Shown: positions 7,625 through 61,086, numbered from the stretch's first letter. The stretch is DNA of 64,000 nt from an uncultured Bacilli bacterium (GCA_947629655.1 CANREL010000004.1:13577-77576), one strand, 5' to 3'. A program made the numbers and translations. The notes: generated by a model from the letters alone, not told the origin.

Positions 7625-8248
7625 ATGAAAAAGAAAGTATCAGTTTCTTTTTTTAGTAGTAAAAATATTGAAGATGATTTGATAAGTTTATGTGATACAT
7701 CAGTTGATTACATCCATGTCGATGTTGGTGATGGTAAATTCATTGAAAGAAAATTTAATCCAATCAAAGAGTTAAGCGGTTTATCAGGAGCACTTACTAA
7801 GCGATTAGATGTCCATTTCATGGTTGAAGATCCAGAGAAGTATATCATCGATTACAGTGAATTGAATTGTGAATATATAACGTTTCATTGTGAGATAAAA
7901 AAAGATATTTTGAAACTTTTAGATCTCATTAAATCTTATGGAATTAAATGTGGTTTAGCGATTAGTCCAGATACGGATATCTGTTTCTTGGAACCTTTTT
8001 TAGATGACATTGACATGATTTTAGTAATGAGTGTCGTACCAGGTAAAGGGGGACAGAGTTTTATCTATTCGACTATTGATAGAATAAAAGAGATAAAAAA
8101 ATTAATTGGTAGGCGTGATATCGTCATCAATGTCGATGGAGGAATAAATGGGGAAACTTCTAAGTTGGTCGATAGTGATATCGTTGTCAGTGGAAGCTTT
8201 GTCTTAGGTAGTGGTGATCTAGAGAAAAATATTGAAGCAGTAAGGTGA
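7625..8248 (+). CDS. rpe: ribulose-phosphate 3-epimerase family protein (divergent)
   Basis: Motifs HVDVGDGKF, HFMVEDP, MSVVPGKGGQSF and VDGGIN. Its position after rsgA matches the conserved Firmicute operon. Confidence 0.7.
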   Translation: MKKKVSVSFFSSKNIEDDLISLCDTSVDYIHVDVGDGKFIERKFNPIKELSGLSGALTKRLDVHFMVEDPEKYIIDYSELNCEYITFHCEIKKDILKLLDLIKSYGIKCGLAISPDTDICFLEPFLDDIDMILVMSVVPGKGGQSFIYSTIDRIKEIKKLIGRRDIVINVDGGINGETSKLVDSDIVVSGSFVLGSGDLEKNIEAVR

Positions 8249-8252
8249 TTAG

Positions 8253-8876
8253 ATGAAAAAATTTTTAATACCATTAATGTTGGTTTTAGCAATTTTGGTA
8301 ACGGGATGTACAATCGATATCAGTAAGAATCACGATCGAGATGATAATGCGATGGATGAAGAAGAGAGAAGTACTGATAAAGAAAAAATGGAAAGTGTAG
8401 GTAGTACATCTAGTAAAGATGCTCCCCTAAGCATTGGAGAAGTTGGTATTTCTAGTAAGTACAATGCCATATTGGATACTTATCAAGATGTCGATGTCAA
8501 ATTGTTAAAAATTTATGATGATGAACTTTATCAAATTGAAAAATATAATGAAAAAAATCCAGATGATCAGATTGAAGTAGATGATGATTACAAAGCGGTA
8601 GTTCTTCAATATGAGGTATCTCTATTCGATTTTGAAACTGAATCTTTTGGAACTAGTGTTGAACTAGATACGGAAATTACGGATGTAAATGATAACAGTT
8701 TTGTTGTCAATGGTGTTAAACAAGTCATCGATGTCAAAGTTTTAGATAGTGATGCAGGAATTACTAATGGATCTAGTGGAAAAGTTACTATTTTTTTCCA
8801 AATACCGAAAGATGTGACTAATTATTTAGTCAAGTTAGGCACAAATAATCAAAAAATTGCGTATTATAAAGTGTAA
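8253..8876 (+). CDS. lipoprotein, function unknown
   Basis: Signal peptide with the lipobox LVTGC, followed by an acidic linker and a beta-rich domain. Confidence 0.65.
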   Translation: MKKFLIPLMLVLAILVTGCTIDISKNHDRDDNAMDEEERSTDKEKMESVGSTSSKDAPLSIGEVGISSKYNAILDTYQDVDVKLLKIYDDELYQIEKYNEKNPDDQIEVDDDYKAVVLQYEVSLFDFETESFGTSVELDTEITDVNDNSFVVNGVKQVIDVKVLDSDAGITNGSSGKVTIFFQIPKDVTNYLVKLGTNNQKIAYYKV

Positions 8877-38277: not shown

Positions 38278-38294
38278 TTAGAAAGGAAATTATT

Positions 38295-39122
38295 ATGAAA
38301 AAGAAAAACACAAAGAAAATTAAAAAGAATAATTCAAAAAAAGTTTTAATCGCATTTTCAATAATAGTGATGTTATCTATCATAACTTTGGCTCTATTTC
38401 TCATAAATAGCGACAATAAAAAATATAAGAGTAATAGAGAAGTAGTCGAAAATGTCATCAAAGATGTTTTCTTAACAGAAAATACTTCTCAAAAGAAAAT
38501 AGAAAATTATTTTGGTAATCAAACTGTAAAAGTATTTGTAGCAATGGGAGAGGATAGTTACTTGCGATATATCCCTCCAACTTTTACAGAAAAGAATGCT
38601 GACTACATGAAGTATGAAACTACTCAGAAAAAATATGCCGAAAAAGTAGAAGAAAAAATCTTGAACAACACGAGTTATGTCATAAGTGAGTATGAGGAAA
38701 ATGACAATTTGCAATTTAGGATAACCCCATGGTATTTTGCCCAATATTCCAGTGATTTGTCATATTTGAAAAATAAATTGTTAGAATTGAGTAATATTGA
38801 TCCAGAATTGGTTAATACTAATTATGATAAATATAGTTTTTATGAATATAAAGCTCGTGTTAAAGCTATGGAAATAATGGACAGATATTTAGATAATTAT
38901 GATAATAAAGATGAATCATTAGATTTTACTTTCTATTATGAAAATGGTGAACCCGCTGTTAATCAATATTTGAGTTTATATTTCAATTTAATTGGTATTA
39001 CATCAAAATACAATGTCAATAGTGATGAAAAAATAAAAGAACAAGTGACGAGAGTAGATAAATATTTAGATGAGGCAATTGATAAAAAAATAGTTGATAA
39101 AGATAATGCTTTAGCACTTTAG
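38295..39122 (+). CDS. N-terminally anchored hypothetical protein, tandem paralog 1
   Basis: K-rich N-terminus and one TM helix. It shares long blocks with the next gene (for example TPWYFAQYSSDLSYLKNKLLE...YEYKARVKAM). Confidence 0.6.
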   Translation: MKKKNTKKIKKNNSKKVLIAFSIIVMLSIITLALFLINSDNKKYKSNREVVENVIKDVFLTENTSQKKIENYFGNQTVKVFVAMGEDSYLRYIPPTFTEKNADYMKYETTQKKYAEKVEEKILNNTSYVISEYEENDNLQFRITPWYFAQYSSDLSYLKNKLLELSNIDPELVNTNYDKYSFYEYKARVKAMEIMDRYLDNYDNKDESLDFTFYYENGEPAVNQYLSLYFNLIGITSKYNVNSDEKIKEQVTRVDKYLDEAIDKKIVDKDNALAL

Positions 39123-39135
39123 AAAGAAGATAATT

Positions 39136-39975
39136 ATGAATAAAAAGAGAATAATTGGATTAGTAATAATGGTGTTGGGAAGTATTTGTATATTGAGTTC
39201 TGTTTTCATGATGGTGATCAATTTTTCAAAAGATGACAATACTCCAAAAGATAATGATGAAAGTAATGAAGAAACAACAGAATCAAAACATACTAAAGAA
39301 GTGAAAGAAAATATTGAAAACATCTTTTTAAACGATGATACATCTAGTGATAAAATTGAAGAAATAACAGGTAAAGAAGTGCGTTTTGACTATGTCGTTT
39401 TAGGTAGTGATAGCTATCTTCGCAGTAGACCTACGAGTGAAGTCATCGCTAGTGAAAAACTTGATGATTATGTCACTAAACAAGATGAATATGCTAAAAA
39501 AGTGGAAAAAAATTATAGAGATAATACTGAATATGTCATCGTTGAAGGTGATGATAAAAATTTGAATTTTCAAGTTACACCATGGTATTTCGCTCTATAT
39601 TCTAGTGATTTATCCAGTTTAAAAAATAAATTATTAGAGATGGCTAATGTCGATTTGAGTTTAATTGATACTGATTATTCTAAATATTCTATTTATGAAT
39701 ATAAAGCTCGCGTTAAAGCAATGATAATTTTAGATAGTTATTTAAATAATTATAAAAATGATAATGAAAATATTGATTTCGTATTCTATTACGAAAATGA
39801 TAAACCAGCACCTGATCAATATCTCAACTTGTATTATAATTTAATCGGTTCTACTTCTAAGTACATGACTAATAATGAAGAACAATTAAAAGTACAAGTT
39901 ACAAGAGTAAATGATTATCTCAATCAAGCTATTGAAAATGGTTTAATTGATAAAAATGATGTTTTAGGATTGTAG
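39136..39975 (+). CDS. N-terminally anchored hypothetical protein, tandem paralog 2
   Basis: Same architecture as 38295-39122. A 63-aa block is 44/63 identical by my hand alignment. Confidence 0.6.
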   Translation: MNKKRIIGLVIMVLGSICILSSVFMMVINFSKDDNTPKDNDESNEETTESKHTKEVKENIENIFLNDDTSSDKIEEITGKEVRFDYVVLGSDSYLRSRPTSEVIASEKLDDYVTKQDEYAKKVEKNYRDNTEYVIVEGDDKNLNFQVTPWYFALYSSDLSSLKNKLLEMANVDLSLIDTDYSKYSIYEYKARVKAMIILDSYLNNYKNDNENIDFVFYYENDKPAPDQYLNLYYNLIGSTSKYMTNNEEQLKVQVTRVNDYLNQAIENGLIDKNDVLGL

Positions 39976-39982
39976 TTTTTTT

Positions 39983-40006
39983 AAGAGAATTTTTATTCTC
40001 TTTTTC
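39983..40006 (+). terminator. rho-independent terminator
   Basis: Hairpin aagagaat/tttt/attctctt followed by a T-run. Confidence 0.7.
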
Positions 40007-40029
40007 TTATTTTAAAATATCTATTACTA

Positions 40030-40038
40030 TGTTATAAT
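40030..40038 (+). promoter_or_regulatory. putative extended -10 element of the tad operon
   Basis: TGtTATAAT lies 31 nt upstream of the ATG at 40070. The RBS GGAAGG lies between them. Confidence 0.4.
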
Positions 40039-40069
40039 TATATTGATAATAATAGGAAGGGTTGATTTG

Positions 40070-40426
40070 ATGAAAAATAAGCAAAGTGGTCAAGCATTAA
40101 TAGAATTTGTCATTATTTTACCAGTTGTGATCTTGCTTATTTTTTCTTTTGTAGATTTGGGTAGAATTGTTTTAGAAAATAATAGATTAGAGAATTTAAC
40201 TACGAGTGTTATTGAAAAATATAATGAGACTAAAAAATATGATGATGTCATTTCTTATATCGATTCATTAGGATATGAAAAAGTTGATTTATCTATTTCT
40301 GCACATGATGATATGTTGACGATTAAACTCACTGAAAAAATTGACTTAGTTACGCCAGGACTTTCAAAAATCATGGGTGATCCTTATAAAGTTGAAGTAG
40401 AGAGAGTTGTTAAATATGAAAAATGA
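40070..40426 (+). CDS. TadE-like pseudopilin
   Basis: N-terminus MKNKQSGQALIEFVIILPVVILLIF matches the TadE-type hydrophobic segment (G/xxxxE[FY]). I prefer the ATG at 40070 over the track start at 40043. Confidence 0.65.
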   Translation: MKNKQSGQALIEFVIILPVVILLIFSFVDLGRIVLENNRLENLTTSVIEKYNETKKYDDVISYIDSLGYEKVDLSISAHDDMLTIKLTEKIDLVTPGLSKIMGDPYKVEVERVVKYEK

Positions 40427-41192
40427 AAAAGGTCAAGTATTAGTTCTTTTCATAATGATTTTACCACTTCTATTATTAGGAGGAGCGTGTATCGTTGATT
40501 CTTCTTATATGTTATATCAAAAAAATCGTTTAGATAATATAAATCGTGATGTTTTGAATAGTGTCAATAATAGTTCTTCTTTGAGTGAAGAAGTAATTGA
40601 TGAAATAATTAGAGAAAATGATGCGAAAATTGTCAATGATGAGATATCGATTGATGAGAAAATTGTGATTAAAAATCATGTGATGGTCGATAGCCTATTT
40701 GGAAAGATAATAGGTATTGATAAATATAGAGTCAATTCAGAAGTCAGTGTAAAAGCTAAGAGATTGATATTAGATATCGATAGTTTAAAGAATATTGATA
40801 ATACTGGTAATTATTCAGTTATCAATAATAATGTCATTTATGATGGAGGATTAGTTTTTAAAGATTCTGATTTGGTGATTAATAATTTTAATATGAATGG
40901 TGACTTTGAGATAAATATTTCTTTTTCATTTGAAAAAAATGGTAATTTATTAGAATTCAATAATCTTTTGATAAATATTAGTAATGATGAATTATTCATA
41001 AATGGAAAAAGAGTTACTAGTTTAAAAATTGGTGAAAAATATGATTTAGTCATAACTAAAGATCGAGTTGTATTAAATGGTGATAGTTCAGTATCTTCTA
41101 ATGATATTGACAATTATTCTGGTGATTTGATCATTGGTAAGGGATTCAGTGGAAAAATAGAATTCATAAAAATATATAATATTGGAAATTAG
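40416..41192 (+). CDS. TadG/TadF-like pseudopilin with a C-terminal LamG-like (concanavalin-type) domain
   Basis: N-terminus MKNEKGQVLVLFIMILPLLLLGGACIVD. The C-terminus ends LIIGKGFSGKIEFIKIYN, which resembles the F-x-G-x-I-D-E-V-R-I-Y-N signature of LamG-like domains. Confidence 0.5.
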   Translation: MKNEKGQVLVLFIMILPLLLLGGACIVDSSYMLYQKNRLDNINRDVLNSVNNSSSLSEEVIDEIIRENDAKIVNDEISIDEKIVIKNHVMVDSLFGKIIGIDKYRVNSEVSVKAKRLILDIDSLKNIDNTGNYSVINNNVIYDGGLVFKDSDLVINNFNMNGDFEINISFSFEKNGNLLEFNNLLINISNDELFINGKRVTSLKIGEKYDLVITKDRVVLNGDSSVSSNDIDNYSGDLIIGKGFSGKIEFIKIYNIGN

Positions 41193-41200
41193 GTGAAAAT

Positions 41201-41974
41201 ATGGAAAGTAAAAAAGGTAAAATTCTTACGATTACATCAATGAAGGGTGGAGTTGGAAAAACGATGGTGACGATGCTTCTAGCTAATGTTTTTTCGAAAT
41301 GTGGTAAAAAAGTATTAGTTGTCGATTTGGATTTATACAATGGTAATTTAGCTTTTGCTTATAAAACTAGAGTAAAAAGTTCTATCTATAATTTGTGTGA
41401 TGACATAGCTAATAATCGTTTAGTCAATGGAATAACATCTGAATACGTTTCAAAGATAAGTGATAATTTATACTTTATCGCGGCACCTAAGGATCCACGT
41501 CAAGCTAATAAGATTGATAATAAATATCTCGATAGCATTTTGAAATCATTATCTTTTTTATACGATGTCATTTTAATCGATACTAATCATATATTAAGTG
41601 TTTCTAACATGGTCGCTTTTGAAAACAGTTATAAGATTGTTGACCTTGTCACCAATGACAGCTTTGATTTACAGAGTACGAAGAGTTTTGTGGCCATCTG
41701 TAAGAACATGGGTGTTGACAATTTAGTTTTGATGTTAAATAACGCCATTGATTCACGAAGAGGTTACTATACGACTTATGACATGAAAAATATTACGAAG
41801 AAGAATATTGATTATACAATTCCAAGCGCTTTCTATTTAAAGAATTTTGATCAGTTGGTAATGGATGGTAAGATTGGTTTCTTTGATGAATATTTAAAGG
41901 GTGAAGCTAAAAAGAGTTTGGAAGATTTTGCTGGTCACATGTTAAGTCTCATTGATGATGGAGGTAAGGAATAA
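41201..41974 (+). CDS. TadZ/CpaE-like ParA/MinD-family ATPase
   Basis: Deviant Walker A motif SMKGGVGKT and a DTNH Walker B-like motif. It sits immediately upstream of the CpaF ATPase. Confidence 0.7.
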   Translation: MESKKGKILTITSMKGGVGKTMVTMLLANVFSKCGKKVLVVDLDLYNGNLAFAYKTRVKSSIYNLCDDIANNRLVNGITSEYVSKISDNLYFIAAPKDPRQANKIDNKYLDSILKSLSFLYDVILIDTNHILSVSNMVAFENSYKIVDLVTNDSFDLQSTKSFVAICKNMGVDNLVLMLNNAIDSRRGYYTTYDMKNITKKNIDYTIPSAFYLKNFDQLVMDGKIGFFDEYLKGEAKKSLEDFAGHMLSLIDDGGKE

Positions 41975-43359
41975 TGAAGAAATCTAGTTGGTTAGAAGAA
42001 TTTGATGTAGTTGATCTATCTCCTAAAGTTGATACTCATGAATCTGATTATGAAGTGTTTGAAGATAAGAAGTTACTCGACAATTTTAGAAATAGTATCA
42101 TTCAGGAATTGATCGATAGTAATATAAGTGATAATAGTAATTTATCACAATACATAAATGAAGAAATAGACCGCATTACTGATGGATATGATTTGAGTGG
42201 TCAAGAGAGAAATTATCTTTTGAATTTGATTGAAAATGAAGTTAATGGTTATGGACCAATTACGGAGCTTTTGGATGATAAAAACGTTACAGAAATAATG
42301 ATAAATGGTCCAGATGAAATATATATTGAAGTCGATGGTGTTCTATCACGTGATAAAAGTGTTTCTTTTATCAATGCTGATCACATCATTCGAACTGTTC
42401 AAAGAATAATTCAACCCCTTGGTAGAACGATAGATTCCGCAAGTCCGATGGTCGATTCGCGACTTCCTGACGGTTCAAGAATTAATGCGATCATTCCACC
42501 ATTGTCTGTCAAAGGACCAGTGGTGACAATTCGTAAATTTAAAGATGATATCGACAATATCGATTCTCTAATTGGTAATGGAACACTAACACCTTATATG
42601 GCTAGATTTTTAGATGCCTGTGTCGATGCACGATTAAATATTTTGGTCTGTGGTGGTACTGGTAGTGGTAAGACGACACTTCTAAACGTCTTATCAAACT
42701 TTATCGGTAATGAAGAGAGAATAATCACGATTGAGGATGCTGTCGAATTGCGATTAAAACAAGATCATGTCATTTCACTTGAGACTAAAAGTACTAACTA
42801 TGATCAAGAAGGCGAAGTGACAATTCGTGATTTGGTCAGAAACTCATTACGTATGCGACCTGACCGCATAATTGTTGGTGAAGTTCGTGGTAAAGAAGCA
42901 TTTGATATGCTTCAAGCGATGAATACTGGTCATGATGGAAGTTTGACTACGTTGCATGCCAATGGTTGTAGAGACGCTTTAAATAGACTTGAAACGATGA
43001 TTTTAATGGGTGAGTTGGAACTTCCTATCAAAGCTATCCGCGGTTATATAGAAAGCGCAATTGATATCGTCATATCAGTTGAAAGATTGAGTGATGGTAA
43101 GAGAAAAGTTACATCAATATCAGAAATTGTCGGTTTTGATGGGGAAAACATTCAATTAAAAGAAATATTTGGTTTTATTAAACATGGATTGACGGAAAGT
43201 AAAGAGGTAAATGGAGAATTCATCCTATACGATTACGTTCCAGAAGTTTATGAAAAGATTAAGAGTCGTGGTATTAATACCATTGATGACATGTTTGTAA
43301 AAGAGGAAAAAAAGAAAAAAAGTTCAGTTAAAAAAACAACAAAAAAGACTAAAAAGTAG
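41974..43359 (+). CDS. tadA: Tad/Cpa secretion ATPase (TadA/CpaF family)
   Basis: Motifs VTEIMINGPDEIYIE, GGTGSGKTTLLN, RPDRIIVGEVRGKEAFDMLQAMNTGHDGSLTTLHAN. It ends in a K-rich C-terminal tail. Confidence 0.9.
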   Translation: MKKSSWLEEFDVVDLSPKVDTHESDYEVFEDKKLLDNFRNSIIQELIDSNISDNSNLSQYINEEIDRITDGYDLSGQERNYLLNLIENEVNGYGPITELLDDKNVTEIMINGPDEIYIEVDGVLSRDKSVSFINADHIIRTVQRIIQPLGRTIDSASPMVDSRLPDGSRINAIIPPLSVKGPVVTIRKFKDDIDNIDSLIGNGTLTPYMARFLDACVDARLNILVCGGTGSGKTTLLNVLSNFIGNEERIITIEDAVELRLKQDHVISLETKSTNYDQEGEVTIRDLVRNSLRMRPDRIIVGEVRGKEAFDMLQAMNTGHDGSLTTLHANGCRDALNRLETMILMGELELPIKAIRGYIESAIDIVISVERLSDGKRKVTSISEIVGFDGENIQLKEIFGFIKHGLTESKEVNGEFILYDYVPEVYEKIKSRGINTIDDMFVKEEKKKKSSVKKTTKKTKK

Positions 43360-43370
43360 GAAGTGATAAA

Positions 43371-44387
43371 ATGGATACAGCACTTGATATAATCATTTTT
43401 ATAATTCAAGTGATAACAGGATTTGTACTGTTGTACATCGCTTATCGTCTATTCAGATTTTATCGAACAGTAGGGTTTGATAAGCGCTTTGGACCTTATT
43501 CTGTCGAATTGTTAGAAGATGATAGTGAATCGTTTTTTGACATGGTCAGTTATTATTATGACAAAGTACAAAATTATCTTTCAAAGTCTTTGATAAAAAT
43601 AAAAATATTTGATAGTTATAGTAAAAAATATGAAAAGTATAGTTATGGAAAAAGAGTTAATGCGATAGATGATATGAATTATATATCGAAAAAGATATTC
43701 ATTGGTTTACTATGTGTATTTCTACTATTATTCTCTTGTATTTTTAGATATGTACACGTAAGTTTACTATCGATTTTATTAGCTTTCTTAGTAGGTTTTT
43801 TTGCTCTTGATGTCTATTTGATAATTTATGATAGAATGCGAAAAAACAGTATTGAAAAAGATATTAATAAAGCGGTCATCATCATGAATAATGCCTTTAA
43901 ATCAGGTTATAGTATCATGCAGGCAATATACCTTGTCCATACACAAATGGATGGGGCGATAAGTGAAGAATTTAGAAAGATGTACATCGATATTACTTTT
44001 GGGTTGAACATGGAAGTAGTCTTTAATCGTTTCGCTGATCGCGTTGATTGTGTTGAAGCTCGCTACATGGCTACATCTTTAGGTGTTGTCAATAGGACTG
44101 GTGGAAATATCATTCAAGTTTTTGATGCCGTTGAAAGAAATGCTACGACGAGGCAACGATTGAAAGAAGAACTTAGCAGTGTTTCAGCATCGGCTCGTGC
44201 TATGTTTAAGATTTTGGTATGCATTCCAATATTCATAATTGGTATTCTATTGATTTTAAATCCTACTTATTTTGCACCACTATTCAAAACACCAATAGGT
44301 ATTTTGTGTTTGTTATTGAGTGTGATCATATATGTTTTATACATCATCATCATTAGAAAAATTATATATGTGGAGGTTGATTTATGA
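43371..44387 (+). CDS. tadB: TadB-like platform protein (T2SS-F domain)
   Basis: Polytopic protein with a GspF-like cytoplasmic domain (MNNAFKSGYSIMQAIYLV...EEFRKMYIDITFGLNMEVVFNRFADRV). Confidence 0.75.
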   Translation: MDTALDIIIFIIQVITGFVLLYIAYRLFRFYRTVGFDKRFGPYSVELLEDDSESFFDMVSYYYDKVQNYLSKSLIKIKIFDSYSKKYEKYSYGKRVNAIDDMNYISKKIFIGLLCVFLLLFSCIFRYVHVSLLSILLAFLVGFFALDVYLIIYDRMRKNSIEKDINKAVIIMNNAFKSGYSIMQAIYLVHTQMDGAISEEFRKMYIDITFGLNMEVVFNRFADRVDCVEARYMATSLGVVNRTGGNIIQVFDAVERNATTRQRLKEELSSVSASARAMFKILVCIPIFIIGILLILNPTYFAPLFKTPIGILCLLLSVIIYVLYIIIIRKIIYVEVDL

Positions 44388-45097
44388 AAAAGGTAAAGAA
44401 TAAGAAAAGAACTCTTTCACGTAGTATTTTTTCTAAGAGACAAATCGATAGAATTCAAAGAAAAATCGATTTATTAGGTGAAAATAGTAAATTTGATGCG
44501 ATTTTCTTCTTAAATTTGCGCTTTATTTCTTCCATAGTTCTATTTTTAGTGGTATTATATGTATTTGAGTTGGGGTACTTCTTAGCACCACTAATCACGT
44601 TTATTTACTATTATTTAATTTACTATCTTTTAATTGAATACAATATAAATAAGAGATGTGATAAATTAGATGTTGAAGCGATGTATTTTTTTGAAGTTAT
44701 GACTTTGGCATTAGAATCTGGTAATAATTTAAAAAATGCTTTAGATATGACTTGTAGTAATGTGGACAATGAATTGTCTAGAGAATTTCGTAAAGCTCTT
44801 GATGAAGTTGATTACGGAAAGAGTTTGAATGAAGCTTTAGAGAGTTTGAAGCTTAGAATACCTTCGGATACAATTAACAATATTATTTTGAATATCATGC
44901 AATCTAATATTTTTGGTAATAATATAACTAATGATATGTACAATCAATTGGATTACATTAGAGATAGAGAAATTCAAAAAGCTAAGAGTAGAATTAGTAA
45001 AATACCTCTATACGTATCAGTCATTTCAGTCGTATTTTATGTACCTTTGATAATGTTGTTGATTTTATCACCAGTTATAATAGAATTTTTAAGTTAG
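44384..45097 (+). CDS. tadC: TadC-like platform protein (T2SS-F domain)
   Basis: Overlaps tadB by 4 nt. It has a GspF-like domain (LALESGNNLKNALDMT...REFRKALDEVDYGKSLNEALESL). Confidence 0.7.
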   Translation: MKKVKNKKRTLSRSIFSKRQIDRIQRKIDLLGENSKFDAIFFLNLRFISSIVLFLVVLYVFELGYFLAPLITFIYYYLIYYLLIEYNINKRCDKLDVEAMYFFEVMTLALESGNNLKNALDMTCSNVDNELSREFRKALDEVDYGKSLNEALESLKLRIPSDTINNIILNIMQSNIFGNNITNDMYNQLDYIRDREIQKAKSRISKIPLYVSVISVVFYVPLIMLLILSPVIIEFLS

Positions 45098-45108: not shown

Positions 45109-45828
45109 ATGAGTGGACATTCAAAGTGGGCAACTATCCATAGAAAAAAAGGATTATTGGATGCTGAAAGAGGAAAGATTTTCCAAAAGATTGCTAAAGA
45201 ATTATACGTAGCTGCGAAAGGGACAAATGGTAATCCAGATGATAACCCCGGTTTGCGCTTAGTAGTTGAAAAGGCAAAGAGTAATAACATGCCTAAAGAC
45301 AACATTCAAAAAGCGATTGATAAAGCTGTTAAATCAGCTGGTGGTGAAGACTATGAATCAGTTAGATACGAGGGATATGGTCCAAATGGTGTCGCATTCA
45401 TGGTTGATTGCTTAACTGATAATCGCAATAGAACAGCGATGCTTGTCAGATCAACTTTTACTAAACGTGGTGGAAATCTTGGAACTGACGGATCTGTTTC
45501 ATACATGTTTGAAAGACGTGGGGTTATCGTCATCGATAAAACTCTTGAAGAAGATGAAGCAATGATGGTATGCCTAGATAATGGTGCAGATGATTTCATC
45601 GTCAATGATGACAGTTATGAAATATATACGACACCTGATGATTTCATCAAAGTAAAGACAGCTTTAGAAGAAAGTGGTGTCAAAGAGTTTTTAACTAGTG
45701 AGATTACATATGTAGCTAATAATTTAGTTGAACTTGATGAAGAAGCAACAGAAAGAGTCATGGCCTTAGCTGATGCTCTAGATGAAATTGATGACGTTCA
45801 AAACGTATATCATAATTTGAGTATTTAA
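45109..45828 (+). CDS. yebC: YebC/PmpR-family transcriptional regulator
   Basis: Canonical N-terminus MSGHSKWATIHRKK, with family-wide collinearity. Confidence 0.92.
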   Translation: MSGHSKWATIHRKKGLLDAERGKIFQKIAKELYVAAKGTNGNPDDNPGLRLVVEKAKSNNMPKDNIQKAIDKAVKSAGGEDYESVRYEGYGPNGVAFMVDCLTDNRNRTAMLVRSTFTKRGGNLGTDGSVSYMFERRGVIVIDKTLEEDEAMMVCLDNGADDFIVNDDSYEIYTTPDDFIKVKTALEESGVKEFLTSEITYVANNLVELDEEATERVMALADALDEIDDVQNVYHNLSI

Positions 45829-49058: not shown

Positions 49059-49877
49059 ATGGAAGATTTAGAAAAACTTGGAAAGTTTGAAACTTTACAT
49101 TTAGGTGGAACTGGTACTATGTACTTAGTACATGGGGAAACAAAAAATTACATTTATAAACCGGCTGAAAGTAAGTTCAGTCATCAAAAAGAACCTTTTA
49201 GAGGAATAGTTCAAGAATGTGCTTATGAATTACAAGAGATAGTTGATCCAGTTTCAGCGGTCGTATGTAGATATGTTGATGCGGGAAAGATTTGTGGATC
49301 TGTTCAGGAACTGATCGTCGTTGATAAAAATGCTCCTGACTATAGAGATATGCAATATGCTGGTCAAATACCTGAATTATCATCTTCAGAAGTTGATCAA
49401 TTCATGAGAGAATTTGTAACTGATTATTTATTGTACAATTATGATTCACACGGAAAAAATTTTATAACTGACCAACAGGGAATCATTAGAGGTATTGACA
49501 AAGAACAATCTTTTAGATACATGCGTGAAAAGAAAGCGCAAACACTTGATTTGTATTACTCACCTAATGCGGCTTATGGTGAAGCTGAACCAATATACAA
49601 TACTATTTTTAGAGCGTATCGCGATGGTAAATTAGACATTGATTACAGTGTCATCAGTGGATGCATGGATAGAGTTGAAGCAGTCAGTGAAGACAGATAT
49701 CGCGCCATATTCGCTCCTTATTGTGAAGCTTGTGGTAAAGCTTTTGGTCAAAATCCTAATGAGATGTTAGATCAGATTGTCGCAAGACGCAATACGATGC
49801 GTGAAAAAGTGGATACTTTCTTTCAGGGATTGACTGAGGAACGCGAAGTTAATTTGAGTTCAGGAAAGGGAAAATAA
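49059..49877 (+). CDS. minimal PI3K/PI4K-fold kinase (type II PI4K-like), substrate unknown
   Basis: Blocks are collinear with human PI4K2A as I recall it. GGTGTMYLV...IYKPAE matches GSSGSYFV...VFKPKNEE. GSVQELIVV matches GSFQLFVE. DYLLYNYDSHGKNFI matches DYIIRNTDRGNDNWLI. GIDKEQSF matches AIDNGLAF. Confidence 0.6.
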   Translation: MEDLEKLGKFETLHLGGTGTMYLVHGETKNYIYKPAESKFSHQKEPFRGIVQECAYELQEIVDPVSAVVCRYVDAGKICGSVQELIVVDKNAPDYRDMQYAGQIPELSSSEVDQFMREFVTDYLLYNYDSHGKNFITDQQGIIRGIDKEQSFRYMREKKAQTLDLYYSPNAAYGEAEPIYNTIFRAYRDGKLDIDYSVISGCMDRVEAVSEDRYRAIFAPYCEACGKAFGQNPNEMLDQIVARRNTMREKVDTFFQGLTEEREVNLSSGKGK

Positions 49878-49878
49878 T

Positions 49879-51147
49879 ATGTTAGATAGTGAGGATAAGA
49901 AGTATAATTTTCATTCTCATACTTTTAGATGTGGTCATGCTTCAAATCTTCCTGATTCCACTTATTTAAATGTGGCTTTAAATAACAACTATAATAAGTA
50001 TGGTATTACTGACCATGCGCCTGTTCATCCCATTTTTTATGGCGATTCCAAAATGCGCATGAATGATAGTGAGCGATATGAATATATAAATGCGATTAAC
50101 AATTTGAAAGTGATGTATGCTAAAGAACTAGAAGTCTTTTGCGGATTTGAAGCTGAGTATGACGAAATTATTGAAGAGTATCTATGCGATTTGCGCGATA
50201 GTGTCGATTACATGATTTTGGGACAACACTATGTCTTAAATAGAGATATTAGAAAAAGTCCCAATTATCCAATAGAGTATGCGAAAAAAGTTTGTAAAGG
50301 AATTGAGAGCGGTTTATTCGACATCGTTGCTCATCCTGATATCTTTATGAAATTTCGCACTTCTTTAAAAGATGATGATAGTAGAGAAACATTCATGAAA
50401 AATGCTTACTTAGCATCAAAAATGATTTGTGCTAAAGCAAAGGAATATAATGTACCGCTAGAATTAAATTTAGGAGGAGTCCACATCTTTCCTCGAAAGA
50501 GAATTGAAAGTTTAGATATTGCTCTACCAACTGATTTCTTTCAAGATGATGATGATATGGATTATATCGATTATCCAACAAATTTATTTTGGAATATAGC
50601 TATTGAAATGGGAAATAGTGCTGTCGTTGGAATCGATGCACATTTTCCAAATGAAATTGAAGATCGTGAAGAAAAATTAGAAAGAATTAATCGATATATT
50701 GATCTCTCTAAAATAAATTTTTTACCAAATTCTTATGATCCTGTTAAAGCACGTTTAAACAATCCCAAATTGGAAGAAGCATATCAAAAGACGAAGGACA
50801 GTTTAAATTCAGTTGAAGCGCGATTAATAGATGACATAGTTAGTAAGAGTCTTGAAAGTGATAAAGAAGTTAAGCGTCATTCTTTGGCAACACAAATATC
50901 ACGCAGTTTGAAGTCACCAACTCATATTAGAGCGGTTCCCTTTGGCAATGGTTTTCTAACTCAAGATCAAATATATGACGACATGACTAAAAGAAATAGA
51001 GATGAGTTAGCAATTGTCGCAAGAAATGGTATCATGAGAACAAAAAGTCGTGATAGTGATATTTTTAGAACAGAACTACTAAATGAAATAGATGCTTATT
51101 ACCGTCATCAAGAAGTTGTTAATAAAGAGATTAAAAAGAATAAATAA
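49879..51147 (+). CDS. PHP-domain phosphoesterase (HisJ/histidinol-phosphatase-like) with a ~130-aa C-terminal extension
   Basis: Metal-binding blocks FHSHTFRCGHA, GITDHAP, GFEAEY, ILGQHY, VAHPD and GIDAH. The ATG lies 1 nt after the kinase stop (TAAtATG). Confidence 0.8.
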   Translation: MLDSEDKKYNFHSHTFRCGHASNLPDSTYLNVALNNNYNKYGITDHAPVHPIFYGDSKMRMNDSERYEYINAINNLKVMYAKELEVFCGFEAEYDEIIEEYLCDLRDSVDYMILGQHYVLNRDIRKSPNYPIEYAKKVCKGIESGLFDIVAHPDIFMKFRTSLKDDDSRETFMKNAYLASKMICAKAKEYNVPLELNLGGVHIFPRKRIESLDIALPTDFFQDDDDMDYIDYPTNLFWNIAIEMGNSAVVGIDAHFPNEIEDREEKLERINRYIDLSKINFLPNSYDPVKARLNNPKLEEAYQKTKDSLNSVEARLIDDIVSKSLESDKEVKRHSLATQISRSLKSPTHIRAVPFGNGFLTQDQIYDDMTKRNRDELAIVARNGIMRTKSRDSDIFRTELLNEIDAYYRHQEVVNKEIKKNK

Positions 51148-51210: not shown

Positions 51211-52503
51211 GTGAAAAAGATGGTTAATGTGTCAAATAAAAAGATATTATCGCTAACGCTTAATGAACTTATTAATATATCTTTAGATGATACTTTAGTC
51301 ATGTTGAATAATGATTTGACCAAAGTGGATAAGTATAGTTCTGATTATGCTTTATCAATCGCATCAGCTATCGTAAAAAGAATATTTTTAATTAAGAATT
51401 TTGCCCATCAATATGATAAATTTTATAAAATAATAACTTCTAATGAATTTAGAAATAATAAATATATTTATAGTGCTTTAAAAGATGAAAATACAACGCT
51501 TAGTGATTTGTTAGACGTCTATGATGATGCTGAAGAATTGACTAGTCTCATCGATGCCATTCTCATGAAAAATGAAAAGATGTTTGATGAATTAGTCTAT
51601 GGTCAATACAATGTACGTGAATTGTTTTCTTTAGAATTTGTCAATAAATTTAATCATAATTCTTTTAAAAGAATTTTATCTTTTTTGTTGAAAGATAGTG
51701 ATAGAAAAAGAGTTGTTAAAGCTCTATTCAAAAATAAGAATAATAAATTCATATACATGGTATCAAAAATGGATGATGTCGTTTTACAATACAGTAAAGA
51801 TGATACGAGTTATTTAGATGCCGTTTTAGTCATGTTAAATTACAACAATTATCGTCATCTCTTATGGGATTATTACAATAAATATATTGGTAATATAGAA
51901 AATGAGAATCTTATGAACAGTCCAGAATATCGTAAAGAAGTACCTGATGAGTTAAAAGAATTATTAAATTATACTTTTGCACTGATGGATTATAAGTATT
52001 TAAATGACAAAGTTCCTGAGATAATATCTAGTATCGATGAGTTGATAAGTTCTTTAAATGAAGGAAAAGATATGGTTCATACTACTGTTTTTGGGGTCAG
52101 TGGTTATGAAAAGGTCAAGAATGAAAGTTTTGATATCTTATTTGATTTTCCAAAGATGGATGATGAAAATAAATTGTTGAATTTAAAGATTGCTTTTTTT
52201 AGTAATATATATGGTATAACTTATGATCAAGCAGGGAAAATAATTGATAATTTTGATGATTTTATGAAAGATTTTGATGGATCTTTTGATAAAAAAGATC
52301 AATTGATATATGAGACAGTGATAGCGATGAAGTCTTTATATGATTTAAAGTTAGATGATAAAGATGGAATTGATCTATATCGTGAAGTATATTATAAATA
52401 TGTTAAAAAGAATGGATTATATGCTCCCGTTGAGTTATCAGCGGCAATCATGATGGAAGAGTTGATGCATAGAATGTATGAGAATTCTATAGAAATAATC
52501 TAG
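51211..52503 (+). CDS. paralog A4: N-terminal module only (430 aa) of the large protein family
   Basis: Collinear with the N-terminal ~500 aa of A1-A3 (for example TTVFGVSGYEKVKN...NIYGITYDQAGKII...YKYVKKNGLY...LMHRMYENS). It ends just before the position of the conserved core. The start is GTG 51211 or ATG 51220. Confidence 0.75.
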   Translation: MKKMVNVSNKKILSLTLNELINISLDDTLVMLNNDLTKVDKYSSDYALSIASAIVKRIFLIKNFAHQYDKFYKIITSNEFRNNKYIYSALKDENTTLSDLLDVYDDAEELTSLIDAILMKNEKMFDELVYGQYNVRELFSLEFVNKFNHNSFKRILSFLLKDSDRKRVVKALFKNKNNKFIYMVSKMDDVVLQYSKDDTSYLDAVLVMLNYNNYRHLLWDYYNKYIGNIENENLMNSPEYRKEVPDELKELLNYTFALMDYKYLNDKVPEIISSIDELISSLNEGKDMVHTTVFGVSGYEKVKNESFDILFDFPKMDDENKLLNLKIAFFSNIYGITYDQAGKIIDNFDDFMKDFDGSFDKKDQLIYETVIAMKSLYDLKLDDKDGIDLYREVYYKYVKKNGLYAPVELSAAIMMEELMHRMYENSIEII

Positions 52504-52537
52504 TTTTATGTGATAGAATGTTATTAGGAGGTCTACT

Positions 52538-53641
52538 ATGAGTGAAATTTATAAAGACAATGAAAGAGTAGATGAAAGAGAAGCAGAAAAGAATTCTATT
52601 TTGGATGATTACTTAAAAGACGTTGGGCCAATTTCAAAATTTATTAATGAGGGCTTTGAAGAGATTGATAGGGATCTTGGCGTTCAAGATGGTGTTTTAG
52701 GATTTGCGGTAGGAGATGCTTTGGGTGTCCCTGTTGAATTTTCAAGACGTGAAACTTTGATAGATAGACCAGTTGTTGATATGATGGAGTATGGTGTTCA
52801 CAATCAACCAAAGGGAACTTGGAGTGATGATACTTCAATGATGATTGCTACAATGGATGCCATTATCAATAGTTCAAAGATTGATTATCACAAGATAGCT
52901 GATAATTTTTGCCTTTGGGCTAGCAGTAGAAAGTTTAATCCTCATGGTAAATTGTTTGACATTGGAATTACGACGAGTGATGCTCTTAAGCGTTACATGT
53001 TTGAAGGATGTGAGCCTACAAAAGCTGGCAATAAAGGTTATTATGACAATGGTAATGGTTCACTAATGCGCATTTTACCTTTGGCATATTACTTTAATAG
53101 TAATAAGATGTCCGATGAAGAGATGGCTACTATCATCAATAATGTCTCATCAATAACGCATGCTCATCCAATCAGTTGTATGGGATGTTATCTATACGTA
53201 AAATATGCCATGGATTTATTAGATGGAAAAGATTTCAATGAGGCTTATCAAGATCTACTAAGATGTGATGTATCAATGTATGATAATGATACAGTCAAAG
53301 CTTATGGTCGTATTTTAAGTGGTGAACTTGGACAAATAAAGGATCAAAATAAGATTAAATCTAGTGGCTTTGTCGTCGATTCTTTAGAGGCATCTATTTG
53401 GTGTTGCTTAAATAGTGATAATTATAAAGTTGCGACTTTGAAAGCTGTCAATCTTGGCGATGATACCGATACGGTTGGAGGATTGACAGGAGGATTAGCG
53501 GGTATTAAATATGGACGTGAAAGTATTCCTAAGAATTGGGTCGATTCTTTAGCACAAAAAGATTATTTAGTCGAGTTGTGTGATGAATATCAAAAAACGA
53601 TAAAAAAAACAGCAAATTTGAATAAAATTAGACATGTTTAA
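52538..53641 (+). CDS. ADP-ribosylglycohydrolase (ARH/DraG family) with a ~47-aa N-terminal leader
   Basis: Motifs GFAVGDALGVPVEF, WSDDTSM, GNGSLMR and LGDDTDTVGGLTGGLAG, so the metal-binding acidic residues are present. RBS AGGAGG. Confidence 0.9.
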   Translation: MSEIYKDNERVDEREAEKNSILDDYLKDVGPISKFINEGFEEIDRDLGVQDGVLGFAVGDALGVPVEFSRRETLIDRPVVDMMEYGVHNQPKGTWSDDTSMMIATMDAIINSSKIDYHKIADNFCLWASSRKFNPHGKLFDIGITTSDALKRYMFEGCEPTKAGNKGYYDNGNGSLMRILPLAYYFNSNKMSDEEMATIINNVSSITHAHPISCMGCYLYVKYAMDLLDGKDFNEAYQDLLRCDVSMYDNDTVKAYGRILSGELGQIKDQNKIKSSGFVVDSLEASIWCCLNSDNYKVATLKAVNLGDDTDTVGGLTGGLAGIKYGRESIPKNWVDSLAQKDYLVELCDEYQKTIKKTANLNKIRHV

Positions 53642-57110: not shown

Positions 57111-60092
57111 ATGGAAAAGAAAACAGAAGAAATTGTCCTAAAGAAAAATTTTATGCCATCGATGAGTATGGTATTCGGTTTTCTAAGTCAAAATAAATTT
57201 ATCAATATGTCGATTAATAAGATGGAAGAGAAAGATATTGAAGAAGTTAGAGCGATTCTTTTGAATGATGTCAAAGAGTTAAAAGACAAAAATCAAGCTG
57301 TCCAAAAACAACAACTTCAAAAAATTTTTTCCAAGATCTTTGCTCTTCAACCATATCTCAATCAACGATTAAAAGATAGAAGTTTGCGAAGTACAGAGCA
57401 GCGCCTATATGCTGATCTAATTTTGACACCTGGTTTATTCGATCTCGATTACGTCGATAATTTTATTAGAAATGATTTTGTCAATAATGAGAAAAATCGT
57501 TTTAAATATGAATCTTTGATTGAAATATTAGATTATCGAAAAGGTTTATCAGATGAATCACGAGAAAAATTTGATTATTGTTATCGCAGTAGTGTTAAAT
57601 TTGCTAATTCTTTAATAAATAATCCAAATATAATTAGTCATTTACTAACGGAAAGAAATTTACAAATGTTTAGTAAAGAAACATTGTCACACATTTTTAG
57701 ATTTTTAAATTCTGGTGAAGATATCTCTAATTTATTTGCTGAAGAAAATAGTAAAGTATTATTTATCTTTTCACAGATGTGTGATGCTGTATATAAAAAA
57801 GTTGGACATGAAAGCGAAGTATTAGATGCCGGTTATCGAATGTTGAGAGATGCCGATTTTAAAGAAATTCTAAATGACTATTATGACAAATATGTTGGTA
57901 GTCAAGATAATGAAAATGACTTTAAAAAAAGAGTTGGTTTGGCTAATTCAGTTGAAATGCAAGAACTCTTTAATTACATGGTTACTCAAGGCTATAATTT
58001 CAGTTATGGTTCTAAAACTTTTTCTGATATTCATACCATAGAAGAATTTATGAATTTCGTAAGAGAAGAAAGAGAAAATAATCATATTGTTGTATTTGGA
58101 AAAGAGAATTATGAAAGAATAAAAAATGGTCATTTGGATGATGATATAACTTTTAAAAAGATAACAGATGAAGATGAGTTAAAAGAGTTTAAAAAAGCTG
58201 TTTTAGAAAATATATATGGAATCAATACATTTGAAGCAAGTCACATCACTAGAACTTATGGAAATTATTTAGAGGAGTTACAGAAATGTCTCAATGAAAA
58301 TGATAAAGTTACTTTTGAAATATTGGAAGCGATTGTCAAGATTGATAAAATGGAACTCGATAATGAAGATGATATCAAACACATTCAAAGAGCTTATTGG
58401 AAATATGTTAAAGAAAAAGGTTTGGATCATCGAAAAGAATATTCTTCAATTTTAGTATTAGATGGATTGTTAAACAGAATGTATATGAATACATATAGTG
58501 ATATTTTGTTTGATGAAAAAGATAAGAGAACTATTAGAGTTGATGATGGTGTACCAGTAATTGATGCGGGAGTCGAATTCAACATGATCGTCACTGCTTT
58601 AAATGGAGCACAAAAGTTTTTACAAAGAGGCGTTAACATTGCCAGTAAATGGAATACAGCTATGATGGAAGATAGACAGGGATTGTGTGCTTCTTTTATC
58701 AATAATTCCAATTTGGGAACAATTACTCTTAATGGTCCTTTATTAGGATTTAAAAATTTGCCCAAAGATTGTTTGAATGCGATGGGTACTACTGATATAT
58801 ATACGACTCCAGGATCTTTCAACTTGCGTTATTACAATCGAAGTCATACACTTTTTGTACCGGGACCAAATTTAGCTGATGAGACCCGATATGGTTACAA
58901 TGAGATGTTGTTAGATAGATTTTTATCAAAAGATGAAGACAATCAATTAAAACTTCAACCGGATTATGTCATCTATTACAAGACAGAAGAACCTTATCAG
59001 ACTAGTATGCGTTATGAAATGTGTTTAAAGACCGCTAAAGAATTTGGAATACCATTAGTTGTCGTCGACTATGAAAAAATCAAGAAAAATGAAAAAAAAG
59101 TTATCCATGAAATGGAACAAGAATTATTTTCAAAAGAAGAAGTTAATAAAGATTTATTAGTAGATATAATGAGTAGATATATGAACAATATCAGTGGAAC
59201 TAGAACGATTCATGGACCTACTAAATTTGGTGGTTTACACGTCAAAGATGAAGATACTTTTCCAACTGGTGATTTAAGAATTTTTATCAATGATGTGGAA
59301 CGTAGATGTGAATATATAACTGATGCAGAAAAGAAGGAAAAATGGATCGAGGCTTTTGAAGCAGCTTATGAAAATGAACAGCGAAAACATTTTGTAGCGG
59401 TCAGTGTCAATTCATATAATTGTTCAATTGGCGCTGATAAAGTTGAATTTATGTTGATGAGTGAATATGATGTTGGAAATCGCATAAAACGCTTGAAAAA
59501 AGTAGAAGAAGAAACAATAGAAGAAGAGGGAATATTTTATAAATCAAGAGATGTTCCTGGGGATATGGATGCTCTTTGTCTATTATCCAATGCTTTAGAT
59601 TTCAATACGCAGTACGACATTGTTGAAAAATACAATGATGAAGGAGAATATGGATATTATTATCAAGTAAAAAAGAATAGTAAAGAACCTAGTATTGAAG
59701 AAAAGTTAATCGTTTCTTATCTAACTGATAATTATGATACAGATTTATTGAAAGAGATGCACGATGATATCAAGACTAAAAATGTTAAATTCAATATTCC
59801 TGATAATAGGAATTTAACTGAACATGTAATGTCTTCACCAATATTTAGTAATGTTCAATATGATCAAAATAAACTAGATGGTATCATTGAAAAAATAGAA
59901 AAGATGAATGAAAAAGATTTTATCAACTTATTTGGAGCACATATTGTAGATAAATCTGATAAATATCACATAGATGTTGATACTGTTGCTTATGAGATAT
60001 CGCTTAAAAAGAGTAGTATTCGTGAAGATTTTAACAATTTGAATAATTTTATTAATAAAGGTTCAGAAGAAATAGTAGTGAAAGGAAAGTAG
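57111..60092 (+). CDS. large uncharacterised cytoplasmic protein, paralog A3 (993 aa)
   Basis: Starts 12 nt after A2, behind AGGGGAG. The conserved core lies at nt ~58548-59210. Confidence 0.8.
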   Translation: MEKKTEEIVLKKNFMPSMSMVFGFLSQNKFINMSINKMEEKDIEEVRAILLNDVKELKDKNQAVQKQQLQKIFSKIFALQPYLNQRLKDRSLRSTEQRLYADLILTPGLFDLDYVDNFIRNDFVNNEKNRFKYESLIEILDYRKGLSDESREKFDYCYRSSVKFANSLINNPNIISHLLTERNLQMFSKETLSHIFRFLNSGEDISNLFAEENSKVLFIFSQMCDAVYKKVGHESEVLDAGYRMLRDADFKEILNDYYDKYVGSQDNENDFKKRVGLANSVEMQELFNYMVTQGYNFSYGSKTFSDIHTIEEFMNFVREERENNHIVVFGKENYERIKNGHLDDDITFKKITDEDELKEFKKAVLENIYGINTFEASHITRTYGNYLEELQKCLNENDKVTFEILEAIVKIDKMELDNEDDIKHIQRAYWKYVKEKGLDHRKEYSSILVLDGLLNRMYMNTYSDILFDEKDKRTIRVDDGVPVIDAGVEFNMIVTALNGAQKFLQRGVNIASKWNTAMMEDRQGLCASFINNSNLGTITLNGPLLGFKNLPKDCLNAMGTTDIYTTPGSFNLRYYNRSHTLFVPGPNLADETRYGYNEMLLDRFLSKDEDNQLKLQPDYVIYYKTEEPYQTSMRYEMCLKTAKEFGIPLVVVDYEKIKKNEKKVIHEMEQELFSKEEVNKDLLVDIMSRYMNNISGTRTIHGPTKFGGLHVKDEDTFPTGDLRIFINDVERRCEYITDAEKKEKWIEAFEAAYENEQRKHFVAVSVNSYNCSIGADKVEFMLMSEYDVGNRIKRLKKVEEETIEEEGIFYKSRDVPGDMDALCLLSNALDFNTQYDIVEKYNDEGEYGYYYQVKKNSKEPSIEEKLIVSYLTDNYDTDLLKEMHDDIKTKNVKFNIPDNRNLTEHVMSSPIFSNVQYDQNKLDGIIEKIEKMNEKDFINLFGAHIVDKSDKYHIDVDTVAYEISLKKSSIREDFNNLNNFINKGSEEIVVKGK

Positions 60093-60096
60093 AGAG

Positions 60097-60309
60097 ATGA
60101 AAGCAAGTGAATTGAGAAGAATTGTTGAAGAAAAAAAGGGTGTTAACAATGAGAGAAGTACTAGTAGTATTTCTAATTTAGATGATGATTATGGAAGTTA
60201 TCATGAGACTATTCTCAATAATTATTTAGAGGATGTCGGTGCTATTTCTAAATATATTAATGATGGATTAAAAGAAGTAGAAAAAAATAAGAATTTACCA
60301 AACGTTTAG
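60097..60309 (+). CDS. 70-aa protein homologous to the N-terminal leader of the ADP-ribosylglycohydrolase
   Basis: ATG lies 4 nt after the A3 stop and has an AGGAAAG RBS. TILNNYLEDVGAISKYINDGLKEVEKN aligns with ARH SILDDYLKDVGPISKFINEGFEEIDRD (14/27 identical, the rest mostly conservative). Confidence 0.6.
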   Translation: MKASELRRIVEEKKGVNNERSTSSISNLDDDYGSYHETILNNYLEDVGAISKYINDGLKEVEKNKNLPNV

Positions 60310-60334
60310 AAGAAAACATTTTTGTTTTCTTTTA
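60310..60334 (+). terminator. rho-independent terminator
   Basis: Hairpin agaaaaca/tttt/tgttttct followed by a T-rich tract. Confidence 0.7.
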
Positions 60335-60375: not shown

Positions 60376-61086
60376 ATGGAACTAAAATATAAGAGAATTT
60401 TAATCAAGTTGAGTGGTGAAAGTTTAGCTGGTAAGATTGGACATGGCATAGATTTTGATAGAACTTTGGAAATTTGTAGTGAAATAAAGAAAGTTAGTGA
60501 TTTAGGTGTAGAAGTAGCTATCGTAGTTGGTGGTGGTAACTTCTGGCGTGGTCGTAGCAATATGCATATGGACAGATGTACATCTGATTATATTGGGATG
60601 CTTGGAACGACGATGAATGCTTTAGCGCTTGGTGATGCTTTTAAACAATTAGGACAAGATGTCAGAGTTCAAACGGGAGTTGAAATGCGCCAAATTGCAG
60701 AGTTTTATATCAAGAATAGAGCTGATCGTCATTTGAGTAAGGGAAGAGTTGTAATTTTTGGTTGTGGTACTGGTAGTCCTTTCTTCTCAACTGATACAGC
60801 AGCTGCTCTAAGAAGTGCGGAGATAGGAGCTGATGCGGTTTTAAAGGCCACGAATGTCAGTGGTATTTACACAGCTGATCCAAAGAAAGATGCTAATGCA
60901 ACGATGATTGATGAGATAACTTATATGGAAGTTCTAAATAAAAAATTAAATGTCATGGATTCGACAGCGATGACTCTATGCATGGATAATGATATTCCAA
61001 TAGTAGTGTTCAACATAAATGAAAAAGGAAATCTTTTAAAATTGATTGAAGGAGAGAAAATAGGGACAGTAGTAAGTAATAAGTAG
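60376..61086 (+). CDS. pyrH: UMP kinase
   Basis: Motifs [21 protein letters not shown] and [13 protein letters not shown]. Confidence 0.92.

Follow-up and report, generated by a model that had tools for sequence, protein, structure and literature searches.

On erasers of the ADP-ribosylhydrolase (ARH) family, N-terminal extensions supply a second mode of action that works by binding, as the immunity protein Tri1 shows. To our knowledge, the origin of such extensions is not known. In Tri1, the extension occludes the ADP-ribosyltransferase (ART) while the ARH domain reverses the modification (PMC8120803). Here we describe a locus in which an ARH enzyme carries an N-terminal leader that recurs as a separate small gene. 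The locus lies in a 64,000-nucleotide (nt) stretch of DNA from an uncultured Bacilli bacterium (GCA_947629655.1, CANREL010000004.1:13577-77576; referred to as the window and numbered from its first letter). The ARH gene (52538-53641, + strand), which encodes 367 amino acids (aa), and a 70-aa open reading frame, ORF70, both fall within a 14.5-kb island flanked by yebC (45109-45828) and pyrH (60376-61086). The gene order, all on the + strand, is A1, a kinase-like gene, a PHP phosphoesterase gene, AN430, ARH, A2, A3 and ORF70, where the A genes encode large paralogues. Judged by sequence, both the ARH leader and ORF70 belong to an undescribed family of highly charged helical proteins of ~65 residues, which we name S, and they are paralogues within it; the leader can be assigned to one type, S1, joined to ARH, and ORF70 to a second, S2.

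RESULTS

The ARH leader and ORF70 share a conserved core

BLASTP aligns ARH residues 20-46 (SILDDYLKDVGPISKFINEGFEEIDRD) gap-free with ORF70 residues 38-64 (TILNNYLEDVGAISKYINDGLKEVEKN), with 14/27 positions identical and 25/27 positive (pairwise E = 2e-10), in agreement with the gapless and mostly conservative alignment reported in the initial annotation of the window. When the ARH N-terminus was compared with all six-frame pieces of the window (71.6 k residues), ORF70 was matched at E = 6e-8 and the next match followed at E = 1.6. A resemblance of the A3 C-terminus (DFNNLNNFINKGSEEI) to the S core, likewise at E = 1.6 and not conserved in other A proteins, was dismissed as chance. A profile built from both peptides found no third copy in the window.

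At the nucleotide level, the two 81-nt cores are 68% identical, matching at 18, 25 and 12 of 27 first, second and third codon positions. The proportion of synonymous differences (pS) is 0.77, which is saturated, and the proportion of nonsynonymous differences (pN) is 0.21. Because pN is far below pS, the comparison indicates purifying selection on the core, and the earlier view that the peptide rather than the DNA is conserved holds. Two finer claims stood in part. ORF70 was said to end exactly where the catalytic domain begins; its residue 70 aligns with ARH residue ~52, PF03747 starts at residue 52, and leaderless ARH homologues begin at a position equivalent to ARH residue ~46, so that the correspondence is approximate, not exact. 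The ORF70 ATG does lie 4 nt after the A3 stop (TAG, 60090-60092), but the ribosome-binding site that had been placed there is a Shine-Dalgarno-like AAAGGAAAG inside the last A3 codons. The exact ORF70 protein was called on 14 metagenome contigs and one NCBI assembly; with 0 differences in 10 contigs, strain-level variation is uninformative.

S proteins form a family of two types

A 5-sequence S profile scores ORF70 at E = 3.5e-26 and the ARH leader at E = 4.5e-22. Extended to 11 sequences, the profile retrieves 42 clusters from 5.8 billion proteins, all of 34-87 aa, with none of the 42 fused to another domain. The 11-sequence profile was required, as a single-sequence word-index search with ORF70 matched only ORF70 itself. 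These 42 free clusters bear out the suggestion that the leader is a detachable unit, found also as a small protein in its own right. We define the family by a length of 47-87 aa, a place in the A island and the core AMxxYLxDVGPISx[YF]INxxFxxI, in which Y, L, S, I and N are invariant, and every S locus recovered is an A island between yebC and pyrH in uncultured gut Bacilli. Searches of ORF70 and of the kinase-like protein against Pfam, NCBIfam, PADLOC, PHROGs and PDB sequences gave no usable annotation. Both the S and A families appear to be undescribed, there being no models in four libraries and only hypothetical labels in the sources.

The two types differ in sequence and in position (related loci are designated by L numbers and their proteins by P numbers). 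S1 has the consensus MxxEEFKKEM..NP...REKAMQAYLDDVxPISEYINxGFxxIDAKRLTKKEGN..GR, with the MxxEEFKKEM...NP start and the AK[RK]LTKK[ED]GN tail as its signatures, and S2 has the consensus MKAxELR....[FY]Y..REEAMxSYLxDVGPISxYINE..xIxKE. Free S1 genes encode 67-71 aa behind a strong ribosome-binding site of their own and are situated just upstream of a leaderless ARH gene (for example, L013 2894-3097: MEFKELREAMKRVKENPDSINNDVNVEEMRNRAMQEYLDDVAPVSEFINRSFEEIDAKRLTKKEGNK). Their 3' ends lie inside the ARH gene by 4 nt (L013) or 11 nt (L020/L021, L022/L023 and L024). S2 genes end the operon, lying directly 3' of the last A paralogue, the position of ORF70, in the window, L013, L015, L017 and L016, of which the L016 copy is divergent (Table 1). 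S1 and S2 share one contig, JAFSDH010000009 (L023 plus L015).

ORF70 starts with MKASELR and follows A3, which places it in the S2 type; the leader is S1-like in its GFEEID motif, its genomic position and its upstream region, with the S1 tail lost. ORF70 is thus an S2 gene, an old separate paralogue and not a copy of the leader. A survey of homologous loci for leader-only genes versus full ARH genes, as had been proposed, recovered free S1 genes, leaderless ARH genes and S2 genes after A genes. The idea that ORF70 is a leader-only version paired with an A gene stands as far as position goes, each S2 directly following a full-length A gene, but not in its direction: free-standing S genes are the common and, by these comparisons, the ancestral state.

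The leader is best explained by in-frame fusion of S1 to ARH

Of the closest ARH homologues, P0003 alone shares the leader; it is 69% identical along the entire protein. The ~24 clusters next in similarity (59-69% identity) have ~320 aa and begin MDVKDGVLGF; the fused state occurs in 2 clusters of ~26 island-type ARHs. From EEID to the V-K/Q-D-G codons there are 41 nt in L013, including the S1 tail, stop and ARH start, versus 12 nt in the window; this difference of 29 nt brings the S1 frame into the ARH frame. Moreover, free S1 genes have an upstream region and a ribosome-binding site orthologous to the ones that precede the fused gene. In P0003, the junction has the length found in the window and the N-terminus is shortened in the same way; the region upstream is orthologous to the window's, and an A3-like gene follows.

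A neighbour-joining tree built on the catalytic domain pairs the window ARH with P0003 as its sister (75% identity) and nests the two among the free-S1 lineages P0005, P0015, P0017 and P0018. Because of this nesting, the fused state is derived and arose once. A net loss of 29 nt in the ancestor shared by P0003 and the window organism took away the S1 tail, its stop and the ARH start, and so joined S1 in frame to ARH. The fused leader is without the S1 N-terminal helix motif as well as the S1 tail. The tail could be an ARH-binding element made redundant by the fusion; it also encodes the ARH ribosome-binding site (aagaaggaagg). S1 is missing from L017 and L012/L018, where ARH directly follows AN430 or PHP.

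The ARH domain is standard and the leader is predicted to be one long helix

The catalytic domain matches PF03747 at E = 8.9e-67 (226 bits, cut-off 26.2), with residues 52-332 covering model positions 2-286 of 287. The acidic metal-binding motifs D60 (GDALG), S96-D97-D98 (SDDTS) and D309-T310-D311-T312 (DTDT) do not vary across an alignment of 109 sequences, the window protein among them. This is a standard and apparently active ARH domain.

The AlphaFold2 (AF2) model of the ARH protein has a predicted local distance difference test (pLDDT) score of 94. The leader is modelled as a single long helix (residues 2-43, pLDDT 66-90), from an alignment two sequences deep in that region, the free S proteins having been left out since MAFFT placed them inside the ARH domain. 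The closest solved structure to the catalytic domain is Lmo0067 (8za7_A; 40% identity, E = 2.4e-79, template-modelling score 0.91), and Tri1 (6dre) matches the same domain at 30% identity (Foldseek E = 3e-17). The Tri1 equivalog model, NCBIfam NF041672, gives the window ARH 182 bits where its cut-off demands 490, with an alignment that starts at model position 71. An S profile run against all PDB sequences, 6DRE and 8ZA7 included, gave a best match at E = 0.37 to an unrelated protein.

One relative stands outside the island context. In L028 (1-9116), P0028, an ARH 51% identical to that of the window, directly follows a 3082-aa polymorphic toxin ending in PF03496 (ADPrib_exo_Tox), a classical ART toxin and ARH immunity pair. 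P0028 bears a different helical N-terminal extension of ~55 aa, unrelated in sequence to S. Therefore, the clade of the window ARH includes ART-toxin immunity proteins with N-terminal extensions.

The island and its large A proteins

Features of the window island and of S2 genes elsewhere are collected in Table 1. AN430 sits directly upstream of the S1/ARH gene and is conserved in L013, L016, L017, L020, L022 and L024. The kinase-like gene is also kept in L012, L016, L017, L020, L022 and L024; Bcl-xL matches to its product (E~0.005) were taken as noise. HisJ-family NCBIfam matches of the PHP protein are below cut-off. The kinase-like gene, with its weak HipA_C or PI3K-4K-like catalytic-loop motif, and the PHP gene adjoin at 49059-51147 and are conserved in most related islands; they could form a phosphorylation writer/eraser pair beside ARH. 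A1, kinase and PHP are not adjacent in L013, which has AN430, S1, ARH, two A genes and S2. L016 (CANQJR010000009, 5586-13944) holds a reduced island of A1, kinase, AN430, one A3-like gene and the S2-like gene, without PHP and with no ARH within 15 kb.

Table 1 Coordinates of island features in the window and of S2 genes in related loci
Feature	Position	Strand	Remark
A1 paralogue, 1026 aa	45878..48958	+	First island gene after yebC
Kinase-like protein, 272 aa	49059..49877	+	Weak HipA_C match, E = 0.016, below cut-off
PHP-domain phosphoesterase, 422 aa	49879..51147	+	PF02811, E = 2.7e-8
AN430, 430 aa, A N-terminal helical domain alone	51211..52503	+	Aligns only to A residues ~30-465
Ribosome-binding site of fused ARH gene, AGGAGG	52526-52531	+	Upstream of leader
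Leader of fused ARH, assigned as S1-derived, residues 1-51	52538..52690	+	Conserved core 52595-52675
ARH catalytic domain of fused gene	52691..53641	+	Pfam PF03747
A2 paralogue, 1122 aa	53730..57098	+	34% identical to A3
A3, 993 aa, last large paralogue	57111..60092	+	Immediately upstream of ORF70
Shine-Dalgarno-like AAAGGAAAG of ORF70	60081-60089	+	Inside final A3 codons
ORF70, 70 aa, S2-type small helical protein	60097..60309	+	Conserved core 60208-60288; apparent last cistron
Terminator-like hairpin, then U-rich tract	60307..60334	+	Overlaps ORF70 stop codon
S2	L013 11145-11336		After last A paralogue
S2	L015 13028-13237		After last A paralogue
S2	L017 14923-15114		After last A paralogue
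S2-like, divergent, P0159, 47 aa	L016 13795-13944		After A3-like gene

The hairpin after ORF70 has a 12-bp stem (-11.5 kcal/mol, z = -4.7 versus shuffles). Since it overlaps the stop codon and is followed by a U-rich tract, ORF70 appears to be the final cistron. In this AT-rich DNA, a consensus scan for promoters and terminators was uninformative, and it missed the hairpin because the stem has few G-C pairs. The window island lacks an ABC exporter gene found in relatives: ORF70 is followed by the hairpin and then directly by pyrH. That gene (581-594 aa; ABC_membrane and ABC_tran) stands between S2 and pyrH in L013 (11395-13140), L015 (13262-15046) and L017 (15168-16916). L020 has two additional small ORFs, of 136 and 77 aa, between PHP and AN430 (7774-8417), which are not in the window. 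Directly upstream of yebC lies a Tad/Flp-type pilus gene set (35542-45097), syntenic in relatives, that encodes a pilin-like N_methyl protein with Listeria-Bacteroides repeats, TadE-like proteins, a TadZ/CpaE-like ATPase, T2SSE and two T2SSF proteins.

The A proteins have no match in Pfam, NCBIfam, PADLOC, PHROGs or PDB sequences. An exhaustive A profile search found 380 relatives, of which ~55 are close; the distant ones match the core only (profile positions ~400-860) and bring no informative Pfam domain. Scans of genome contigs with A3 alone found nothing, the A alignment found 4 loci, and a metagenome scan yielded only one fragment. Three distant members of the superfamily are single genes among housekeeping genes. 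In L025 (13073-13264) and L026 (11332-11529), a charged ORF of 63-65 aa follows a single-copy distant A gene, after topA and dxs; these small ORFs show no detectable homology to S. L025 further encodes a protein of 405 aa in which a GS...D.D motif resembles that of pol-beta nucleotidyltransferases.

In the confident AF2 model of A3 (pLDDT 89.7), the N-domain and the C-terminal parts are helical, and the core (~474-653) is alpha/beta. An A protein was compared with CteC, the Chromobacterium violaceum ubiquitin Thr66 ADP-ribosyltransferase (PDB 8UX2), to which its sequence identity is 9%, and we infer that the match falls on the A core. The CteC triad is R65/S97/E220 (PMC10810742); no such R-S-E triad is evident in the A alignment. 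The A3 model gave nothing significant against PDB by Foldseek, and hhalign of the A profile to a bona fide ART toxin domain was negative. Because none of these three checks lends support, an ART-like A core is a lead, not a result.

DISCUSSION

We propose that the amphipathic helix which S1 and S2 share would dock onto a single partner, very probably a member of the A family. S1, whether separate or joined to ARH, would keep this eraser at its A partner, and S2 would take the same site without the enzyme, as a regulator, competitor or occluder. S1 and S2 probably bind the same partner because their cores are nearly identical, and the A family is favored as that partner because a full-length A gene is the only invariable neighbor of S2. 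Docking to A is further favored by L016, which keeps an S2-like gene with A genes but no ARH or PHP, and by L013, which has S1, S2, AN430, ARH and two A genes without adjacent kinase and PHP. The whole account, with the leader and ORF70 as S paralogues, S1 fused to ARH and S a predicted docking helix for an A protein, is one we hold at somewhat better than even confidence. Several observations weigh against it. S1 always adjoins ARH and never an A gene, a placement that would suit binding to ARH just as well. The S domain was found on none of the 165 A-superfamily members checked. ARH does not need S1, since L017 and L012 have the enzyme and lack S1. The conservation of the S1 tail proves nothing because the ARH ribosome-binding site is embedded in it. 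Lastly, the L016 match to S2 is weak (E = 1e-4).

An ARH-binding role is the basis of an alternative that we think unlikely but that deserves a hearing: the S proteins may be regulatory subunits of ARH (inhibitor, activator or localiser, as with PII/GlnZ and DraG), S1 being the cognate subunit made covalent in the window and S2 a second regulator from the operon end. S1 lies directly upstream of ARH wherever it occurs, with overlapping stop and start, and is fused to ARH alone; the leader helix reaches pLDDT 84-90 over residues 11-30 despite the depth of two sequences; and DraG-GlnZ is a solved precedent, with 3o5t among the structure matches. This would leave the persistence of an S2-like gene in the ARH-less L016 unexplained, as well as the 2-6 large genes that separate S2 from ARH and the L017 and L012 lineages that keep ARH without S1. 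Rather less likely still, the fusion could be a neutral accident of neighboring, translationally coupled genes, with S acting in the island (for example, as an A assembly factor) and having no specific tie to ARH. Genes that overlap by 4-11 nt are easily joined by a small deletion, the fusion is confined to one lineage (2 of the ~26 clusters), and the leader has shed both the N-terminal helix motif and the tail of S1. Nonetheless, both carriers have retained the fusion with an intact core motif while their ARH domains diverged to 75% identity.

The invariance of Y43, S51 and N55 (ORF70 numbering), in an island that encodes a kinase-like protein, a PHP phosphoesterase and an ARH, would also suit S proteins that are substrates or acceptors, reversibly ADP-ribosylated or phosphorylated on the invariant Ser, Tyr or Asn. 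We regard this as quite improbable: a substrate fused to its own eraser is hard to square with signaling, and the invariant residues lie on one hydrophobic/amphipathic face, as is typical of a packing helix. The scenario that the initial annotation had named as its own refutation, in which ORF70 is the decaying remnant of a deleted second ARH gene, or else resembles the leader by chance, is refuted by the comparative data and retains hardly any probability, even though the ORF70 stop falls about where an ARH domain would start. The window-wide match (E = 6e-8) speaks against chance. S2, with its own N-terminal signature and ribosome-binding site, occupies the same position in five divergent loci, none of which has ARH remnants after it; the substitutions indicate purifying selection (pN << pS), and a strong hairpin and then pyrH come directly after the stop.

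Beyond the docking-helix account, the island might be a self-contained circuit of reversible ADP-ribosylation (and phosphorylation), in which the A proteins would be divergent ART-fold enzymes, the S proteins Tri1-like docking or occluding helices, S2 a binding-only inhibitor, and S1 the means of bringing ARH. We consider this larger scheme improbable as it stands. If it is true, the S1-ARH fusion shows how the "two-for-one" architecture of an ARH immunity protein or regulator is assembled from separate genes; if the A core has an ART fold, the island is a new endogenous writer/eraser/adaptor module. If the A core is not an ART, what is left is a clean case of a new family of small proteins in which a gene fusion is documented, of modest general interest. 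In either case, the extension is seen here as a free gene (the usual state), as a fusion (in one lineage) and beside a second free paralogue, which provides a natural split-versus-fused pair. The locus also flags an unannotated system in uncultured gut Bacilli, of 3-8 tandem ~1000-aa paralogues without a known domain together with kinase-like, PHP and ARH proteins, and the small S proteins may be the easiest experimental handle on it. What is new is a detachable, fusable helical module on an ARH eraser in an uncharacterised island, with a clear evolutionary story and an inferred function.

Comparison with known systems places the window ARH among several described arrangements. Lmo0067, from the Listeria monocytogenes ART-ARH toxin-immunity pair (PDB 8ZA7), is the closest solved relative of the catalytic domain. 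By contrast, library searches of the window island's proteins recognised no ART, whether of the PF03496 type or any other, and the island is chromosomal, syntenic and multi-paralogous rather than a polymorphic-toxin cassette. The DraG-GlnZ complex (PDB 3O5T) is a case of an ARH-family eraser, of the same fold as the window ARH, whose activity or location is set by a small partner; there, however, the partner is a PII trimer unrelated to S, and the window has no nitrogenase or PII context. The fusion itself is like other Rosetta-stone fusions of coupled operon genes, in that overlapping cistrons were merged by a small frame-restoring deletion and the free and fused states coexist. Such fusion is a general evolutionary mechanism and not a functional family, and it predicts a functional link, not the nature of that link.

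The nearest parallel in function is Tri1 of the Serratia proteamaculans Tre1-Tri1 pair (PDB 6DRE/6DRH). In both proteins, an N-terminal extension of 50-70 residues precedes a DraG-like ARH domain, and the domains are homologous. The initial annotation had likened the leader to the Tri1 extension; at the sequence level this fails, as the S profile finds no similarity to the Tri1 or Lmo0067 extensions or to any other PDB entry, the window ARH scores 182 against the 490 of the Tri1 model, and its extension lies outside the model match. Moreover, unlike that of Tri1, the window extension corresponds to a detachable gene product with a second free paralogue, and the ART partner is only putative. 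Although it fails both the Tri1 score and the extension-homology test, the window ARH functionally resembles Tri1 as an ARH enzyme with a binding extension, the binding by S being predicted.
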